Notes under the pieces: generated by a model
The model's database searches: none
Told to the model about the DNA's origin: nothing
The model's input: the letters and a program-made list of their open reading frames with translations, nothing else
Shown here: one piece after another, positions 13,434-53,861 of the stretch
Position numbering within the stretch: position 1 is the first letter of the stretch
How the letters are laid out: each line of letters starts with the position of its first letter
Source of the DNA: an uncultured Bifidobacterium sp.
Lineage (GTDB): Bacteria > Verrucomicrobiota > Verrucomicrobiia > Limisphaerales > JADJPG01
Reading direction: 5' to 3'
Assembly (NCBI GenBank): GCA_964491875.1
Contig: CAZBIC010000037.1
Coordinates: forward strand, 4,567 to 68,566
DNA: 64,000 nucleotides
Made by a program: the position numbers and the translations under genes

Positions 13434-14714
13434 TCACGCGTTCTTCGGCTGCTCCGCCACCCCGGTCACCCGCAGGCAAAACTTCACTGCCTCGATGAAC
13501 TTCAGCCACGTATCAACCTTCGGATTGGCAACCGCTGATCGGACGCAATGGCTGAATTGATTTGCGTTCACCAGTGTGTTCCCGTCCGGTGCGGCGGACA
13601 GCAAGCCGGTGGACACGAACTCAGCCAGCCTGGCTGCGAACAGGCCACCGGACCGGCAGGATTCGACGAGCACATAGACCTTCTCCGGATGATTCCGGAC
13701 CACCGCACTGTTTTGGCGCAGCCTTTGCCAGAAGGCCGGATGAGTGATCCACTCCTTCGTCCGTTGACTCGCTGTTTCCCATTCCATGGCGATCTGGTTC
13801 GTCGGGTTATGCTGGCCGCCGTATCCGTGGGCCGCCACGTAGATCACCATTTGATCGTTCGGCGAATTGCAGAACGTCTGCGGCACATCCCGGTCCAGCG
13901 ACTGCACCATCATGTCGAAAGTGTCGACACCCAGCCTGAAATCAAATCCCGGCCCGCCTGCGTAGCTGGACCGCGTCCGGTAACCGCGCTGCGCGAACCC
14001 GACCGCGACCCGCAACGTCTCGTCCCACAACGGATCCATCCGCTGATGCGTCAGCGGATCGACCGCGGAATATCCTTGGAAACACATCCCATAGAACAGA
14101 AACGTCGGTGGCGGTTCATTTGGGCCAGGGGCCGGCGGTGCCGTGGGCACATAACCGCCGCCAGTTGGATTACTGGTGGGCACTGGAAGATCCGTCCCCG
14201 GCCAGGGCCCGTGCAATGGCGGACCCAGTAATTCCTGCGGCGTAGGACTGAGCCAGATCTCACTGGTGAACGATGTTTTCCACAATTGCGCATACAACTG
14301 CCGGTTATGGATCGCGCAAGCCTCCAGCATCCCGGCATTGAAAAGCGGAAACGTCCGTCCGTTGGTCACGAGATTCCCCGTCCACACACTGGAAAACGCC
14401 TTGTTCGCGCCGAAACCGTTTAAAACCACCAACGCCAGCGGACGGTCAAACAGCGCCATCGGCTGAGCATCGACCAAATACACGCGGCAGCCAAAGCCCA
14501 GCCCCTCCAGCCAGGAACGCACAAACGAATACGACTGCCCAGTCTCCTCCAAGCCGACACGGACCTCCACGTCACACGGCAGCGGAACCCTGTACACCGC
14601 CGATTTCTCGAAAGAAAACTTCTCCCTCAATTCACCATCACGCATCAGCGACCGGATGGTTACCAGCGCGCGACAGTTGACCCAGTGCTCCAACCGAACG
14701 TTCATCGTGCTCAT
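13434..14714 (-). CDS. Hypothetical cytosolic protein with C-terminal clan-CD (caspase/legumain-like) peptidase signature
   Basis: 426 aa, no signal peptide. A hydrophobic strand + His-Gly (MVIYVAAHG) is followed 57 residues later by a hydrophobic strand + Cys (VYVLVESCRSGG). This is the clan CD catalytic dyad pattern. The N-terminal ~200 aa and the Pro-rich linker are unrecognised. Confidence 0.4.
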   Translation of the reverse strand: MSTMNVRLEHWVNCRALVTIRSLMRDGELREKFSFEKSAVYRVPLPCDVEVRVGLEETGQSYSFVRSWLEGLGFGCRVYLVDAQPMALFDRPLALVVLNGFGANKAFSSVWTGNLVTNGRTFPLFNAGMLEACAIHNRQLYAQLWKTSFTSEIWLSPTPQELLGPPLHGPWPGTDLPVPTSNPTGGGYVPTAPPAPGPNEPPPTFLFYGMCFQGYSAVDPLTHQRMDPLWDETLRVAVGFAQRGYRTRSSYAGGPGFDFRLGVDTFDMMVQSLDRDVPQTFCNSPNDQMVIYVAAHGYGGQHNPTNQIAMEWETASQRTKEWITHPAFWQRLRQNSAVVRNHPEKVYVLVESCRSGGLFAARLAEFVSTGLLSAAPDGNTLVNANQFSHCVRSAVANPKVDTWLKFIEAVKFCLRVTGVAEQPKNA

Positions 14715-14987: not shown

Positions 14988-15314
14988 CTACACCGTAGTT
15001 CCAATCTGCCGCCGCAATCGCGCGTTCAATCGCGACTTCCATTTCCGCGTCAGCTCATGCTCCCAGAGACGCAAGACCCGCCAGCCGTTACGCCGCAACG
15101 TGCGCGTCACCAGTTCCGCCGTGGAGAAGCCGAGAGCCCTCGCAAGTCGCGCGACGTTCTTGATGCCGGGATTGCGCAGGCCGCGTTCGATGCCGGAGAT
15201 GTAGTTGGGATCGATCTCGGCTTTCTCAGCCAGCTATTCCTGCGTCAGCTCGCGCACCTCGCGGCGGCGGACGTTCTGCCCGAGGGCGGCAAGGACGGCG
15301 TCACGTTTCTACAT
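14988..15314 (-). pseudogene. Relic XRE-HTH::Vsr C-terminus fusion (collapsed paralogue of the 51.5-57.8 kb operon) with two in-frame TAG stops
   Basis: The minus-strand frame reads M*KRDAVLAALGQNVRRREVRELTQE*LAEKAEIDPNYISGIERGLRNPGIKNVARLARALGFSTAEL|VTRTLRRNGWRVLRLWEHEL... Codons 1-68 match HTH1 (51520..) and codons 69-88 match the Vsr C-terminus (VTRTLRRDGWRVLRIWEHEL, 57.7 kb). The stops are at 15309-15311 and 15234-15236. Confidence 0.8.
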
Positions 15315-15316
15315 GA

Positions 15317-15360
15317 CTGATAGTCCATAAGCCGGAAGCGAAAGGTCTATGGACGATCAG
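15317..15360. promoter_or_regulatory. Relic copy of the controller-protein operator (inverted repeat)
   Basis: Arms ctgatagtccata (15317-15329) and tatggacgatcag (15348-15360) are separated by 18 nt. The arms are identical to those at 51474-51517 (in reverse orientation), while the spacer differs. Confidence 0.6.
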
Positions 15361-15825
15361 CCAGGTAGTGAATACCGAGATCGCCGGGAGGAGTTGCGGA
15401 GCACGTCGCCGCCCGGCGTCTTGCTCCGCTCATTTTCCACGATGAATACGAGTCATGGCTCCGACTCGAAGCCCACCAAGTTGCGATGGTTCAGATCCTC
15501 CGCTCGTGACGGAATCTCCGGGACAGACTCGTGTGACACGTCCTGATCTTGGACACCACGGCGCAGGCCGTTGGGCAGGCGACATCGATGCCGGCCAATT
15601 GAACCACGCAGAGCGCTGATTTGGCCTGTGCGGTTCCGGAGCTTCGGCAGCAGAACAATTCCCTGGGAGATTCTCGCCCTCCTTTCAGTCGCTGGCACGC
15701 GGGCTGCAAGCCGCGATGAGTGATTCAAAGCAATCGCCACAGTGAAGTGAAACGTCCGTTGGTCATGGAGTCATCCGGAAGCCACGAGTCCGAAGCACAA
15801 CGATAGGAAATCGCAAAGGTCATTT

Positions 15826-34791: not shown

Positions 34792-35787
34792 ATGAACCGC
34801 CTTTTAATCTTCAGTCTCCTGCGCCACCTCGCGTGTCTCTTCGCAGTCACTACTTCCATCCATGCCGCGGAGGAAAACCCCACCTTTGCGGAACGCCTCG
34901 GCTGGAAGGCAGGTCAAGTCGTCGTCATTCTTCACGTGGACGACGTCGGCATGTCGCGTCCGTCGAATCTCGGCGCCATCGAATCCGTGGAGCAAGGCGT
35001 CGCCACCTCGTGGGCCGTCATGATGCCCTGCCCTTGGGTGCCAGATATCGGGCACTACCTGAAGAAACATCCGGAGATCGACAGCGGCCTGCATCTCACG
35101 CTGACCTCGGAATGGGCGCCCTATCGCTGGGGGCCAGTCGCCGGCAAGTCGCGCGTGCCCGGACTAGTCGACCCGGAAGGCTGCCTCTGGCGCAATGTCG
35201 CTGGCGTCATCGCCAAAGGCACTGCGGACGAAATTGAAATCGAGATTCGCGCGCAGATCGATCGAGCGCAAACCATGGGCCTTCCGATCACACATCTCGA
35301 TTCCCACATGGGAACGTTGTTCGCGCGGGCCGACTACTTCGAACGCTTCGCGAAGGTCGGAATCGAGTTCAAGATTCCCATTCTCGCCATCGGCGGCCAC
35401 GCCACGTATGCCAAACAGGAGAACGGTGACGGCCTGAAAAAGCTGGGCGCCTGGATTCCGAAGATTTGGAACTCCGGCCTCCCGGTGCTGGACGATCTGC
35501 ACACTGGTTCCTACGGCTGGAAGGCCGACGAAAAGCCAGAACGGTTGCTGGCGCTGCTCAAGGATTTGAAACCGGGCGTCACCGAGATCCTGTTCCATGC
35601 GTCGCGGCCCACTGAAGACTTCCCCATCATCACCGGCTCCAGCGAATCGCGGTTCGGCGATCTGAAAGCCCTGACCGATCCCCGGGTGAAGACTTTGATT
35701 CAGCAAAAAGGAATCGTTCTCACAACGTGGAAGGAATTGATGGCACGCCGTCAGAAAGCCGCTCCGATGGCTGACACCGCCCGCTGA
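34792..35787 (+). CDS. YdjC/ChbG-family carbohydrate deacetylase, secreted
   Basis: Signal peptide, then LHVDDVGMSRPSNLGAIE, GLHLTLTSEW and THLDSHMG (YdjC metal and His motifs). Confidence 0.7.
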   Translation: MNRLLIFSLLRHLACLFAVTTSIHAAEENPTFAERLGWKAGQVVVILHVDDVGMSRPSNLGAIESVEQGVATSWAVMMPCPWVPDIGHYLKKHPEIDSGLHLTLTSEWAPYRWGPVAGKSRVPGLVDPEGCLWRNVAGVIAKGTADEIEIEIRAQIDRAQTMGLPITHLDSHMGTLFARADYFERFAKVGIEFKIPILAIGGHATYAKQENGDGLKKLGAWIPKIWNSGLPVLDDLHTGSYGWKADEKPERLLALLKDLKPGVTEILFHASRPTEDFPIITGSSESRFGDLKALTDPRVKTLIQQKGIVLTTWKELMARRQKAAPMADTAR

Positions 35788-50221: not shown

Positions 50222-50299
50222 ATCGATCACCACCAGCCGCCCGCCTTCGTGCTGGAAAACGTGAAATACCTCGTCCGCCACGACCAAGGCCGCGTGTAG
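50222..50299 (+). pseudogene. Fragment of a C5 cytosine DNA methyltransferase (ENV motif region only)
   Basis: Translates to IDHHQPPAFVLENVKYLVRHDQGRV*, which matches the motif V-VI region of C5-MTases (P..fvlENVkgL..hd.G). There is no upstream motif I/IV. It abuts the RAYT-associated repeat. Confidence 0.45.
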
Positions 50300-50925
50300 T
50301 ACCGTAGGTGCGCCATCTTTGTAGAACCAACAGGATAGAGATTTTCAAGCTCCGTCAGGAGCGGCATCCTCTGCGCATGGCCAACACCTACTCCCAAATC
50401 TACATCCAGGTCGTGTTTGCCGTCGAAGGCAGGCAGAATCTCATCAAACCGGAATACAACGACGAGCTGCAGAAATACATCACCGGCATTGTATCCGCTC
50501 AGAGGCACAAACTGATCGCCATAAACAACATGCCGGATCATCTGCACTTGCTTGTTGGCCTGCGACCCGATGCGGCGCTCTCCGAACTTGTGCGAGACAT
50601 CAAGGCGAACTCGTCCCGTTTCATCAGCGAAAAGCGCTGGGTGCCGGGCCGGTTTTCGTGGCAGGAAGGTTTCAGTGCGTTCTCCTATTCGCGTTCGCAA
50701 CTCAGCACGGTGATTCGCTACATCGAGAACCAGCAGAAGCATCATGCCAGGAAATCGTTTCTCGAAGAATACACCGCGCTGCTCGACAAGTTTGAGGTGG
50801 AATACGACCAACGCTACATCTTCAAACCCATCGAGCGGTGAAAGCGTCGGCAGCGCCGTAGGTGCGCCATCTTTGTAGAACCAACGGGATATAAATTCTC
50901 AAGCTCCGTCAGGAGCGACATCTTC
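50299..50925 (+). mobile_element. IS200/IS605-like RAYT unit: Y1 transposase gene flanked by ~70-bp direct copies of its REP-like sequence
   Basis: ccgtaggtgcgccatctttgtagaaccaac.ggata.a.att.tcaagctccgtcaggagcg.catc occurs at 50299-50368 and again at 50856-50925, on either side of the transposase CDS. Confidence 0.65.
50377..50841 (+). CDS. REP-associated tyrosine transposase (RAYT; IS200-type Y1/HUH transposase)
   Basis: MANTYSQIYIQVVFAVEGRQNLI..., the HUH motif in MPDHLHLLVGL, and C-terminal SRSQLSTVIRYIENQQKHH. 154 aa, the typical size. Confidence 0.85.
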   Translation: MANTYSQIYIQVVFAVEGRQNLIKPEYNDELQKYITGIVSAQRHKLIAINNMPDHLHLLVGLRPDAALSELVRDIKANSSRFISEKRWVPGRFSWQEGFSAFSYSRSQLSTVIRYIENQQKHHARKSFLEEYTALLDKFEVEYDQRYIFKPIER

Positions 50926-51450
50926 CGGTGTGATACGGAAGGTGCCGCCCCTACGGGGCTGGGGATTTATTTGGGACGGTTTTTCTACAACGATGCCGCG
51001 CCTACGGCGCTCTCGATGAATCCCCCCTTCTAGCGCCGTAGGTGCGCCATCTCTGTAGAACCAACAGGATAGAGATTCTAAAGCTCCGTCAGGAGCGACA
51101 TCTTCCGGTGTGATACGGAAGGTGCCGCCCCTACGGGGCTGGGGATTTATTTGGGACGGTTTTTCTACAAAGATGCCGCGCCTACGGCGCTCTCGATGAA
51201 TCCCCCCTTGTAGCGCCGTAGGTGCGCCATCTTTGTAGAACCAACGGGATATAAATTCTCAAGTTCCGTCAGGAGCGACATCTTCCGGTGTGCTGCGGAA
51301 GGTACCACCCCTACGGGGCTGGGGATCCATTTTGGACGGTTTTTCTACAAAGATGCCGCGCCTACGGCGCTCTCGATGAATCCCCCTTGTAGCACCGTAG
51401 GTGCGCCATCTTTGTAGAACCAACAGGATATAGATTCTCAAGCTCCGAAA
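50853..51450 (+). repeat. Tandem array (3.3 copies, 180-bp period) of hairpin-rich REP/MITE-like units
   Basis: Unit starts are at 50853, 51033, 51213 and 51392 (partial). Each unit has ~25-bp terminal inverted repeats (gtaggtgcgccatctttgtagaacc / ggtttttctacaaagatgccgcgcctac). Internal hairpins are cttccg..cggaag, gctccgtcaggagc and cccctacgggg. Confidence 0.85.
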
Positions 51451-51473
51451 GGGCGACCCAACCTTCAACCTGG

Positions 51474-51517
51474 CTGATCGTCCATAGACCTTTCCCGCCC
51501 GGCGTATGGACTATCAG
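51474..51517 (+). promoter_or_regulatory. Candidate controller-protein operator (C-box-like inverted repeat) abutting the HTH1 start
   Basis: Arms ctgatcgtccata (51474-51486) and tatggactatcag (51505-51517) match at 12/13 positions and are separated by an 18-nt spacer. The right arm ends 2 nt before the ATG at 51520. The arms are conserved exactly in the relic locus at 15317-15360. Confidence 0.6.
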
Positions 51518-51519
51518 TC

Positions 51520-51759
51520 ATGCCGAAACGTGACACCGTCCTTGCCGCCCTCGGGCAAAACGTCCGCCGCCGCCGTGAGGCGCGCGACCTGACGCAGGAG
51601 AAGCTGGCTGAGAAAGCCGGGCTCGATCCCACCTACATCTCCGGCATCGAACGCGGGTTGCGGAATCCCGGCATCAAGAACGTTGCGAAACTCGCCAAGG
51701 CTCTCGGCTTCAGCACCGCGGAACTTTGCAAAAGGGGGGTCTCGGCTCGAACATTGTAG
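51520..51759 (+). CDS. XRE-family HTH protein 1 (controller/C-protein-like)
   Basis: 79 aa. HTH_3 pattern: LGQNVRRRREARDLTQEKLAEKAGLDPTYISGIERGLRNPGIKNVAKLAKALG. Confidence 0.85.
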   Translation: MPKRDTVLAALGQNVRRRREARDLTQEKLAEKAGLDPTYISGIERGLRNPGIKNVAKLAKALGFSTAELCKRGVSARTL

Positions 51760-51798
51760 CCGATAGTCCACAGACGAAATGGCATCGTCCTGCACATC

Positions 51799-52035
51799 AT
51801 GCAGAAAATGCCAACAAAGGATCGGATCCTCGTTTCTTTCGGCCAAAATGTCGCTCGAATACGCGACCAGCGGGGGCTTTCCCAAGACAAACTTGCTGAG
51901 AAGGCCGACCTTGATCGCACCTACATCAGTGGCATCGAGCGCGGCGTCCGTAATCCCGGCGTTAAGACGGTCATTCGCATCGCGAAGGCGCTGCATGTCA
52001 CCGTGGGCGAATTGTGCAAGGGGGTGGAAGCGTGA
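51799..52035 (+). CDS. XRE-family HTH protein 2 (tandem paralogue of HTH1)
   Basis: About 60% identical by eye to HTH1 (FGQNVARIRDQRGLSQDKLAEKADLDRTYISGIERGVRNPGVKTVIRIAKAL). By homology the start may be the second Met at 51808. Confidence 0.85.
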   Translation: MQKMPTKDRILVSFGQNVARIRDQRGLSQDKLAEKADLDRTYISGIERGVRNPGVKTVIRIAKALHVTVGELCKGVEA

Positions 52036-53861
52036 ACCGGAGGCAAAAGATCTCCGATGGAGTCATCCGCGAGGAATCCACTTCATATCGGGTTTCATCC
52101 GCTAATTCTCCTTCTTCGCTGCAGTGTAATGTGCCGTCACTCACGTGCATCGATCTGTTCTGCGGCTGTGGCGGGTTCAGCCTCGGAATGCAGCGCGCCG
52201 GGTTCAAGGTTCTCGCCGCCATCGACTTCAACGAAGAAGCGGTGGCAACGTTCAAAGCGAATTTTCCGAAGGAGACGCTGGCGCTCAGCAAGGATCTAAC
52301 GACTTTCACGCCCGACAAGTTGATCGCCAAGCTCCACACGAACCAGGTGGACGTGATTGTCGGAGGACCGCCCTGTCAGGGCTTTAGTACGGTGCGTCAA
52401 GTGGACGCCGCGAATCACGGCTCGCGTGTGAAGCGCGACAAGCGCCGATACCTGTTCCGTTCCTTTTTGGATTATGTAAACGCGTTTCGCCCGCGCGTGT
52501 TTGTCATGGAGAACGTCCTCGGCATCCAGAGTGCCGCCAAGGGCAAGTTCTTTACCCTCGTGCAGTCCGAGGCGCGCAAACTTGGCTATCGGGTTCATTC
52601 CCAAGTCGAGGAATCTTGGAAGCTGGGCGTGCCGCAGAAACGCCGCCGTCAGCTCGTCATCGGCGTCCGAAATGATGTGCCGGGATATTTCCCCGGCGAA
52701 CTGGGTCCGGCAAAGCGCGCCTTCAGAGCGCCGGTCTCCGACCCGGCGCGTTCGTGTTCTGACTCGACCTCCGGCACTACTCCAGCCGCTCCGACTCTCT
52801 GGGATGCCATCGGAGATTTGCCGCCGCTCGTCGCAGGAGCGGGCGAAGAAGAACGCGATTACGATTTGAAACTTCGCGCGGAGCATCTTACAAGGCGCGA
52901 CCAAAGAGCCACACACTACCTCGAACAGGTGCTCGAAGTCCATCACACTACCAAGCTCACCGCGCACCGCGCCCGCCCCCACAGCGAGCGTGACCTGCGC
53001 GACTTCGCCCGGATGCTGGAGGGTGAAACCGGCGACCAAACCATCGCTCGCGGTGAAGAGATGGAGTTTCCCTATAAACGAAGCGTGTTTCTCGACCGCT
53101 ACACCCGCCAGCACCGCGAACGGCTCTGCTCGACGATTGTGGCGCATCTCGCGAAGGACGGCCTGATGTTCATCCATCCTACGCAAAACCGTTCGCTCAC
53201 GCCGCGCGAGGCCGCGCGCGTGCAAAGTTTCCCGGACTGGTTTCAGTTTCCCGTGGCCCGGACGCATCAGTTCCGCATCATCGGCAACGCCGTGCCACCG
53301 CTGGTGGCCGAGGCTGTGGGCGAGGAGTTGACGCGATTTCTCGCAGCACCGCTCCAGGACATGGCGAATCGTCGTGGACACGGTATTGATTCGGAACACA
53401 CCGGGTCGGAGACCGGCGCTCCGTTGCCCGCCACCCGTTCCGCAGCCGCGCATCAGTTGGAATCCCTCGCCCGCCTCGACCGGCGGCAGCTCCGCGCCCT
53501 GTCCACCAGGGAATTTCTCTGCGGCTGGCGCGCTCTCCTGTTTCTCTTTCCCGACCTTCATCCCGACAGCGCACAGGATCACGGGGGTGACTCGGAAATC
53601 ATCAGTGCCGACCAGCTTGCCTTGCCCGGTTACGAGGAACTGCTTGCAAAGAGATTTGTCCGCAGCGGCTGGCCCGTCGCTCTGGAAGCCATCGGCGTCG
53701 AAGCCTGGCGGCGGGTTGATGCCCGAGAGCTCACGGACAAGGAATTTTACTGCGCGGAGGCGCAGCGAGCAGGGTTGGCGACATCAAAGTCAGCGGTTTC
53801 GACAGGGGGGACAAATCATGGCAGCAGAATGGATATTCAGGGAACTCCGTCCGGGAGATAA
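52032..53861 (+). CDS. C5 cytosine-specific DNA methyltransferase with ~190-aa C-terminal extension
   Basis: Motif I DLFCGCGGFSLG, motif IV GGPPCQGFS, VMENV, QKRRR, RSLTPREAARVQSFPD and motif X GNAVPPLVAEAVG. The GTG at 52032 makes a GTGA overlap with the HTH2 stop (alternative GTG at 52014). Confidence 0.92.
   Translation: MNRRQKISDGVIREESTSYRVSSANSPSSLQCNVPSLTCIDLFCGCGGFSLGMQRAGFKVLAAIDFNEEAVATFKANFPKETLALSKDLTTFTPDKLIAKLHTNQVDVIVGGPPCQGFSTVRQVDAANHGSRVKRDKRRYLFRSFLDYVNAFRPRVFVMENVLGIQSAAKGKFFTLVQSEARKLGYRVHSQVEESWKLGVPQKRRRQLVIGVRNDVPGYFPGELGPAKRAFRAPVSDPARSCSDSTSGTTPAAPTLWDAIGDLPPLVAGAGEEERDYDLKLRAEHLTRRDQRATHYLEQVLEVHHTTKLTAHRARPHSERDLRDFARMLEGETGDQTIARGEEMEFPYKRSVFLDRYTRQHRERLCSTIVAHLAKDGLMFIHPTQNRSLTPREAARVQSFPDWFQFPVARTHQFRIIGNAVPPLVAEAVGEELTRFLAAPLQDMANRRGHGIDSEHTGSETGAPLPATRSAAAHQLESLARLDRRQLRALSTREFLCGWRALLFLFPDLHPDSAQDHGGDSEIISADQLALPGYEELLAKRFVRSGWPVALEAIGVEAWRRVDARELTDKEFYCAEAQRAGLATSKSAVSTGGTNHGSRMDIQGTPSGR

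Follow-up and report, generated by a model that had tools for sequence, protein, structure and literature searches.

The window analysed here, a stretch of 64,000 nucleotides from contig CAZBIC010000037.1, carries on its plus strand two small neighbouring helix-turn-helix genes, HTH1 and HTH2, and next after HTH2 a C5 cytosine methylase (MTase) gene. The operon order is controller-methylase (C-M), and no recognisable nuclease lies downstream. A decayed second copy of HTH1, hereafter the relic, is found on the minus strand. An initial annotation had described the inverted repeat directly upstream of HTH1 as an operator resembling the C-boxes bound by controller (C) proteins, which time the entry of a restriction-type system into a new cell without killing it. 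The two genes are:

51520..51759, plus strand: HTH1, a 79-amino-acid controller (C) protein; Pfam HTH_3 E=9e-19, C.AhdI E=1.6e-11
51808..52035, plus strand: HTH2, 75 amino acids from ATG 51808 (78 amino acids from ATG 51799); Pfam HTH_3 E=1.6e-17, C.AhdI E=8e-12

Both products are small Xre/lambda-cI-type helix-turn-helix proteins in the range of C proteins (about 70-100 amino acids) and homologous to known ones, their closest solved structures in the PDB being C.AhdI, C.BclI and C.Esp1396I. NCBIfam gave only generic Xre-type names for either protein, below the cut-offs. HTH1 and HTH2 are 62-63% identical to each other and their recognition helices are nearly the same, DPTYISGIERG versus DRTYISGIERG.

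The operator of HTH1 and its conservation

The DNA in front of HTH1 can be divided into five elements, all upstream of the ATG at 51520:

51466..51471, plus strand: conserved left flank of the HTH1 operator, consensus cAACCTG, where cross-locus conservation starts
51472..51482, plus strand: distal C-box of HTH1, GGCT-GAT-CGTC, centre at -43 from the ATG
51483..51489, plus strand: inter-box spacer CATA with half-box 2A (GAC), 1.1-1.5 bits
51490..51504, plus strand: variable spacer, 0.2-0.6 bits, with no conserved half-box 2B
51505..51519, plus strand: proximal inverted box TATG-GACT-ATC-AGTC, a perfect GACT-N3-AGTC, centre at -6, abutting the ATG

The 13-bp inverted repeat with an 18-nt spacer that the initial annotation reported is indeed there: the left arm, CTGATCGTCCATA, occupies 51474-51486, the right arm, TATGGACTATCAG, occupies 51505-51517, they are complementary at 12 of 13 positions, and 2 nt separate the end of the right arm from the ATG. 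Its description as C-box-like is also sound, as the arms contain GACT-N3-AGTC boxes and both proteins match controller proteins. The proximal box, GACTATCAGTC at 51509-51519, lies directly before HTH1 and occupies -11 to -1, and the relic holds an identical box. The distal box is a weakened GACT-N3-AGTC, the family consensus being G[G/A]CT-SAT-[C/A]GTC. Within the window GACTNNNAGTC occurs only at 51509 and 15315, and GATMGTCCA has six matches for 1.0 expected. The 14-mer GATMGTCCAYAGAC is present exactly three times in the 7.49-Mb genome, that is, in the relic, in the left arm of HTH1 and in the gap before HTH2, with no occurrence of a control pattern. A genome-wide search for GACTNNNAGTCCAT allowing one mismatch gave the same count as its control and was uninformative. 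A single GATCGTCCA match at 35489-35497 on the minus strand, distant from the HTH genes, is probably due to chance, as one is expected per window.

We then compared the sites across homologous loci, a check that the initial annotation had proposed. Scanning one genome per species yielded about 40 loci, mostly labelled Verrucomicrobiota, whose proteins are 70-91% identical to HTH1. The upstream regions of 34 sequences, namely the window and 33 other loci with proteins 72-91% identical, were aligned on the ATG. Before -54 the information content is about 0.2 bit, and at -54 it climbs to about 1.0 bit; from there the alignment reads as follows.

-54 to -31: left element caaCCTGGCTGATcGTCCATaGAC, about 1.0-1.5 bits, the element scoring 1.2
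-30 to -21: spacer, 0.2-0.6 bit
-14 to -1: right element ATGGACTAT.AGTC, about 2.0 bits at most positions, mean 1.7
Coding region, third codon positions (reference): 0.62 bit

The spacer is conserved at the level of third codon positions, and the right element exceeds codon positions 1 and 2; in the proximal box the central S position varies and the rest is near-invariant. The two 16-nt units lie 17 nt apart in 30 of the 34 sequences and 16 nt apart in four, the window among them. The claim that conserved arms around a diverged spacer are the signature of an operator is borne out by this 34-sequence comparison, in which the boxes are conserved and the spacer is variable, and only weakly by the comparison of the intact copy with the relic alone (P about 0.03). 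Variable positions 2, 5 and 8 show no covariation between the arms, and at two positions the left and right arms differ systematically (GGCT…CGTC versus GACT…AGTC). The absence of covariation, together with the fixed spacing, points to sequence-specific protein sites rather than an RNA stem. On this footprint, we consider that 51466-51519 is probably the promoter-operator of a C.PvuII-like controller, HTH1, and the predicted region of its binding.

In one group of loci (L020, L024, L026, L030) the recognition helix reads ISDIERG in place of ISGIERG and the left arm reads GCCGAT in place of GTCCAT, the proximal box being unchanged. The pairing is a possible co-change of protein and DNA and probably reflects a single clade, so that it counts as one event. 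A more distant relative, L046 (55% identity), lacks a proximal box and carries two adjacent C-boxes in the classical layout, GGCTTATAGTC-CGTA-GACTTATAGTC, some 22 nt ahead of the ATG (L046:1340-1415); in the test for a full double box the same site was given as CTTATAGTC-CGTA-GACTTATAGTC. The classical layout in this relative suggests that the layout of HTH1 is a derived variant within the family.

A proposed circuit and its resemblance to known controller systems

The configuration resembles that of C.PvuII and its pvuIICR genes (Mruk, Rajesh & Blumenthal 2007, PMC2175313), in which a small Xre-type controller also heads the operon. The C-box of the PvuII group is GACT-N3-AGTC-N4-GACT-N3-AGTC, with OL being GACT-CAT-AGTC. 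Half-box 1B, the spacer and half-box 2A overlap the -35 of the C-dependent promoter, the mRNA is leaderless, and half-box 2B is needed for repression (PMC2175313). In several members of the HTH1 family the distal box is likewise GACT-SAT-AGTC, in L013, L033 and L041 precisely the GACT-CAT-AGTC of OL, followed by a 4-nt spacer and then by the GAC of 2A over a poor -35. By analogy with PvuII, 51483..51489 is likely the -35 region of a C-dependent promoter. HTH1 has both a palindromic C-box and a short distance from motif to start. Neither the HTH1 nor the HTH2 operator contains the full adjacent double box; box 1, the 4-nt spacer and GAC are present. Unlike in PvuII, the spacer is CATA in HTH1 (CAT(A/G) in its family) and CACA in HTH2, not TGTA or CGTG, and the central GT is missing on this strand. 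The HTH1 family shows no conserved half-box 2B; instead, an additional perfect inverted copy of box 1 at -11 to -1, GACT-ATS-AGTC with ATG or TATG in front, fills the 19 nt between the motif and the start codon.

In the survey by Sorokin et al. (2009, PMC2632904), the motif is 35 bp long with complementary terminal trinucleotides, lies typically 18 nt from a leaderless C start and lacks a recognisable -10; known C-dependent promoters there are also without a sigma-70-like promoter, and single-box variants of the PvuII-like motif with weaker downstream copies are described. The consensus motif of the HTH1 family runs from -54 (AAC) to -20 (GTT), with complementary ends and 19 nt to the ATG, and so fits the geometry of a leaderless C gene, the agreement being one of geometry only. 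A simple scan of 51300-52100 found no sigma-70-like promoter.

The next gene is a C5 methylase and not a nuclease, which is another difference from PvuII. Both in the window and in the majority of related loci, the operon headed by the C gene includes a C5 methylase, often along with a Vsr gene, and the stop codon of the HTH1-family gene often overlaps the methylase start as ATGA (GCATGAGCGGGAAA…; L010-L040), which suggests that the C gene is translationally coupled to the methylase and not to a nuclease. The methylases behind HTH1-family C genes are mostly 23-39% identical to that of the window, so one controller head appears to be combined with varied cargo.

Functionally, the proximal box is most like OM of the Esp1396I system, the single high-affinity site through which C.Esp1396I represses the M promoter (Bogdanova et al. 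2009, PMC2691842). Both would be single dimer sites for repression at a methylase promoter, an analogy that fits an operon beginning with C-M. In Esp1396I, however, M forms a convergent unit of its own, transcribed from a separate promoter, whereas here boxes of the repressor type and of the activator type occur on one promoter, their centres 37-38 bp apart.

From these likenesses we propose that dimers of HTH1 bind the distal and the proximal boxes. The distal dimer, at -43, would assist RNA polymerase at a poor promoter, the -35 of which overlaps CATAGAC, and the proximal dimer, at -6, would cover the -10/start region and block it, such that the proximal box is the probable site of autorepression. 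The C-M operon would be autoregulated, with activation followed by shut-off as C accumulates, and its transcript would probably be leaderless. If so, the arrangement would be a variant design in which the repressing site has been moved from the adjacent half-box to a perfect box abutting the start codon of a C-M operon.

Several observations weigh against this proposal. The proximal box is the better conserved and the more consensus-like of the two, whereas in classical systems the distal one is stronger. The spacer lacks the central GT that is found in the inter-box spacer of 28 of 30 known C-box regions. TAGACC and GACTAT, the putative -35 and -10, match poorly and have 18-19 bp between them, and because C stands before a methylase, the classical logic of delaying the nuclease is not directly transferable. 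The circuit may be mainly or purely repressive. In the pure form, which is the main rival of the proposed circuit, both boxes would repress a constitutive promoter, with the proximal one dominant and no activation step. The perfect and almost invariant proximal box agrees with this, as does a distal box that is degenerate in 19-22 of the 34 loci, and from a C-M operon early expression and then shut-off would be expected, with a parallel in C.Esp1396I (PMC2691842). However, the distal box and CATA-GAC have the canonical geometry and stand at the canonical activator position (about -44), and the promoter scan detected no good constitutive promoter. We regard pure autorepression as possible, though doubtful, and retain the circuit with an activating distal site.

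In general terms, the HTH1 system is a variant of a well-known type of regulator and operator. The comparison supplies an operator model at base resolution for two sister families of controllers that head many cytosine-methylase modules, that of HTH1 found mostly in Verrucomicrobiota-labelled genomes and that of HTH2 in metagenomes.

The HTH2 cassette and the probable stacking of the two controllers

A search of a sample of the phylum with HTH2 returned no relative closer than HTH1 itself. The family was recovered from a metagenome scan, with about 30 loci at 59-79% identity; 31 loci were fetched. In all 31 a single C gene, of 75 amino acids from the ATG equivalent to 51808, stands before a methylase, and in about half of them the gene is directly followed by an MTase 53-79% identical to that of the window. 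A GHKL ATPase comes after the MTase in L107 and L121, and in L117 the C gene lies directly before GHKL-X-Y. The elements between the two genes of the window are:

51749..51754, plus strand: GAACAT, the right half of a palindrome that survives in the window and marks the junction of two cassettes
51755..51775, plus strand: distal operator of the HTH2 family, TGT-AGCC-GAT-AGTC-CACA-GAC, box centre at -45 from ATG 51808
51780..51813, plus strand: inverted repeat/hairpin at the HTH2 start, in which TGGCAT (51780-85) pairs with ATGCCA (51808-13), the start codon included

The initial annotation had noticed two additional half-sites in the 39-nt gap, and both lie where it placed them. The first, GATAGTCCA at 51762-51770, is real, but rather than standing alone it forms the core of a complete distal operator of the HTH2 family, which at 51755-51775 also takes in the stop codon of HTH1. 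This 21-bp element, TGTAGCCGATAGTCCACAGAC, is invariant apart from three degenerate positions in about 30 metagenomic loci, and the upstream pattern TGTAGCCGAT[A/C]G[T/G/C]CCACAGAC, found in all of these, matches 51755-51775. The second, ATCGTCC at 51784-51790, is not conserved, the HTH2 family having CATnnTT there, and is a chance match. The distal element of HTH2 and the left element of HTH1 have the same architecture, with CAYAGAC directly 3' of the HTH2 box as well, and a common core, GAT(A/C)GTCCA(Y)AGAC. GATAGT in the HTH2 box was considered as the -10 of a weak promoter and rejected, its last base varying (T, G, C) across the family. Because this element heads some 30 stand-alone HTH2-type genes in front of a methylase of the window's type, HTH2, and not HTH1, appears to be the native controller of the downstream methylase-GHKL ATPase module.

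The structure at the start of HTH2 includes an inner stem, in which TGCA at 51791-94 pairs with TGCA at 51800-03, with ATCGTCC in the 5' half; its minimum free energy is -13.2 kcal/mol (z=-3.3). Almost every locus of the family has an equivalent hairpin, and in a manual count the partners pair in 78.6% of cells, versus 23-46% when they are slid, with clear compensatory change at one pair only. RNAalifold did not recover the hairpin in the HTH2 leader, since the inner stem occupies two registers. On leadered transcripts the structure may act as an RNA hairpin covering the start codon; alternatively, it may be a DNA palindrome at the -10 region. The hairpins of the family (L105-L135) have the form GGCAT…ATGCC with an inner GC-rich stem around CATGATG, and one subgroup has an 8-bp stem, GGCATAAC/GTTATGCC, instead.

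HTH1-family proteins normally have 75 amino acids and end in …CKGVDA followed by TGA. In the window the tail is …CKRGVSARTL, CGA (51748-51750) stands where the family has its stop, and the reading frame stays open as far as the TAG at 51757-51759, inside the HTH2 element. Many HTH2-type operators are preceded by the palindrome ATGTTCC-N5-GGAACAT (L105, L107, L108, L112-L115, L119, L124, L132, L133, L038, L045), which marks the left boundary of this module in places where the module has landed inside the methylase gene of another system. The CGA at the stop position and the retained GAACAT thus place a cassette junction at the HTH1 stop codon. Stacked cassettes were found in two other loci:

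L045 (3930-4620): HTH1 frameshifted; a 5' fragment of an MTase gene in between; then an HTH2-type cassette whose MTase is 58% identical
L038 (3900-4660): start codon of HTH1 lost; a 5' fragment of an MTase gene in between; then an HTH2-type cassette whose MTase is 58% identical

Both have kept the HTH1-type operator, and the truncated C5-methylase 5' end extends through motif I. Their junctions differ, which argues for independent events. The simplest reading of the pair in the window is that HTH1 and HTH2 are cassettes stacked by recombination, after which the upstream controller would be redundant. The HTH1 cassette is best understood as the leftover head of another C-M-Vsr system, fused to the cassette of HTH2. 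Paired controller genes could arise in this manner and then decay, which is relevant to the reading of such pairs elsewhere.

Neither paired C genes nor their explanation by stacking is new. Sorokin et al. (2009, PMC2632904) reported eight loci where two C genes lie no more than 3 kb apart, six of them of the same motif class, and explained them as duplications or multiple insertions. Unlike those pairs, the cassettes here are fused at a stop codon with a 39-nt gap and each belongs to a recognisable family of its own, and three loci document the origin by stacking; the comparison with motif classes 5 and 6 is by their names and the text on their architecture only.

HTH2 would act at its own distal box in the same way as HTH1 at its operator. 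As no terminator was found in the gap at 51760-51798, the HTH1 promoter may read through into HTH2 and the methylase. The two proteins may also cross-read the common core, which is plausible given the shared operator core and the nearly identical recognition helices, but seems incidental, not designed. C-protein incompatibility, or apoptotic mutual exclusion (Nakayama & Kobayashi 1998), as summarised in PMC3874152, deals with a resident system and an incoming one located on different replicons. Controllers with overlapping operator specificities would be expected to cross-activate or cross-repress in either case; here both proteins are in one transcription unit.

The initial annotation had suggested that two proteins with two site arrangements form a more elaborate switch than the usual one. 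In its developed form, a pulse from the HTH1 promoter would prime HTH2, each protein would bind the operator of the other, perhaps as heterodimers, and the system would be established in two stages. The intact state of HTH1, whose copies in L038 and L045 are broken, fits a retained function in a joint circuit and is a point against mere stacking. Also in favour of a joint circuit are the intact operator of HTH1, the 14-nt core common to both operators and unique in the genome, the recognition helices and the lack of a terminator in the gap. With the fusion, the palindrome of the HTH2 cassette lost its upstream half, so that HTH2 may depend on read-through from the HTH1 promoter. Paired C genes were earlier proposed as possible joint circuits (PMC2632904). 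However, an upstream HTH1 is absent from all 31 fetched loci of the HTH2 family, and only one C gene is present in most loci of the HTH1 family. HTH1 is frameshifted or has no start in the two other stacked loci, and the junction, with its lost stop codon and altered tail, resembles an accident of recombination. The comparison favours stacking, and we find a designed switch of two controllers unlikely.

A layered controller made by the fusion itself is an improbable elaboration. The HTH1 promoter, with a tight repressor box over its start, would give a short pulse of read-through transcription, self-limited or independent of C, and this would replace the lost upstream part of the HTH2 cassette. 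The hairpin at 51780-51813 would hide the start of HTH2 in the long transcript, such that HTH2 would be efficiently translated only from its own C-activated, near-leaderless transcript, and the proteins would cross-read the common core. If this were true, a resident controller cassette may be a landing pad for incoming modules, as HTH2-type cassettes lie behind HTH1-type ones in three loci with three junctions.

The arms as hairpin or duplicate, and the relic locus

Returning to the operator of HTH1, its inverted repeat could in principle be a hairpin in RNA or DNA, acting as an attenuator, as a terminator of upstream transcription or as a processing site, since the arms could pair at 12 of 13 positions across an 18-nt loop. 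However, the arms are conserved by sequence with no compensatory change, each of them is itself a C-box palindrome, and no T-run follows the repeat. The absent covariation and the two systematic differences between the arms led us to reject an RNA hairpin, and we hold the hairpin reading in general to be very improbable. Protein binding to the boxes remains our reading of the arms.

The relic lies on the minus strand and consists of two parts:

15112..15366, minus strand: relic HTH1 cassette, both operator boxes intact, a pseudogene
14988..15111, minus strand: vsr gene remnant, the last ~35 codons, matching the C-terminus of the window's own Vsr

Two TAG codons, one at codon 2 (15311-15309) and one at 15236-15234, interrupt the pseudogene, which also has a 3-nt deletion. 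The remnant of vsr is joined in frame to the relic HTH1 at about codon 69 (…STAEL|VTRTLRRNGWRVLRLWEHEL…). By this joint, the relic is most readily taken as an entire C-M-…-Vsr operon collapsed through internal deletion.

As the initial annotation had stated, both arms in the relic (15317-15360) are identical to those of the intact copy. It counted five differences in the spacer, where there are four (51495, 51497, 51498 and 51504), and no others upstream of the ATG. BLAST and local alignment extend the homology over 258 bp at 88% identity, between 51468-51725 and 15366-15112 (minus strand). It begins inside the left flank of the HTH1 operator and stops at 51725, since from that point the relic gene continues into the end of vsr. 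The stretch contains 30 differences, the 3-nt deletion included, and 61 of its 246 13-nt windows are perfect. The probability of no difference across the 26 arm positions is 0.034, and that of all four upstream differences falling inside the spacer is 0.011-0.023. Differences in the coding part number 7, 7 and 9 by codon position, an even spread that indicates neutral drift. As the arms lie within a longer stretch of 88% identity with many perfect 13-nt windows, which is the kind of outcome that the initial annotation had named as damaging to its claim, the comparison of window and relic appears weakly informative by itself as proof of an operator; the cross-locus footprint nonetheless supports the sites. 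That the arms have no function and are identical merely through recent duplication is scarcely credible, for although they are inside that stretch and a quarter of its 13-nt windows are perfect, the boxes are conserved in 33 other loci while the spacer and the upstream DNA have been randomised.

The intact operator of the relic faces an open reading frame of 426 amino acids at 13434-14714. Upstream of HTH1, a tandem array at 50852-51457, with a period of about 180 bp and 3.4 copies that are 91-93% identical and internally palindromic, stops about 10 bp short of the conserved left edge of the HTH1 operator, and copies of about 70 bp related to this array are present at 50295-50371.

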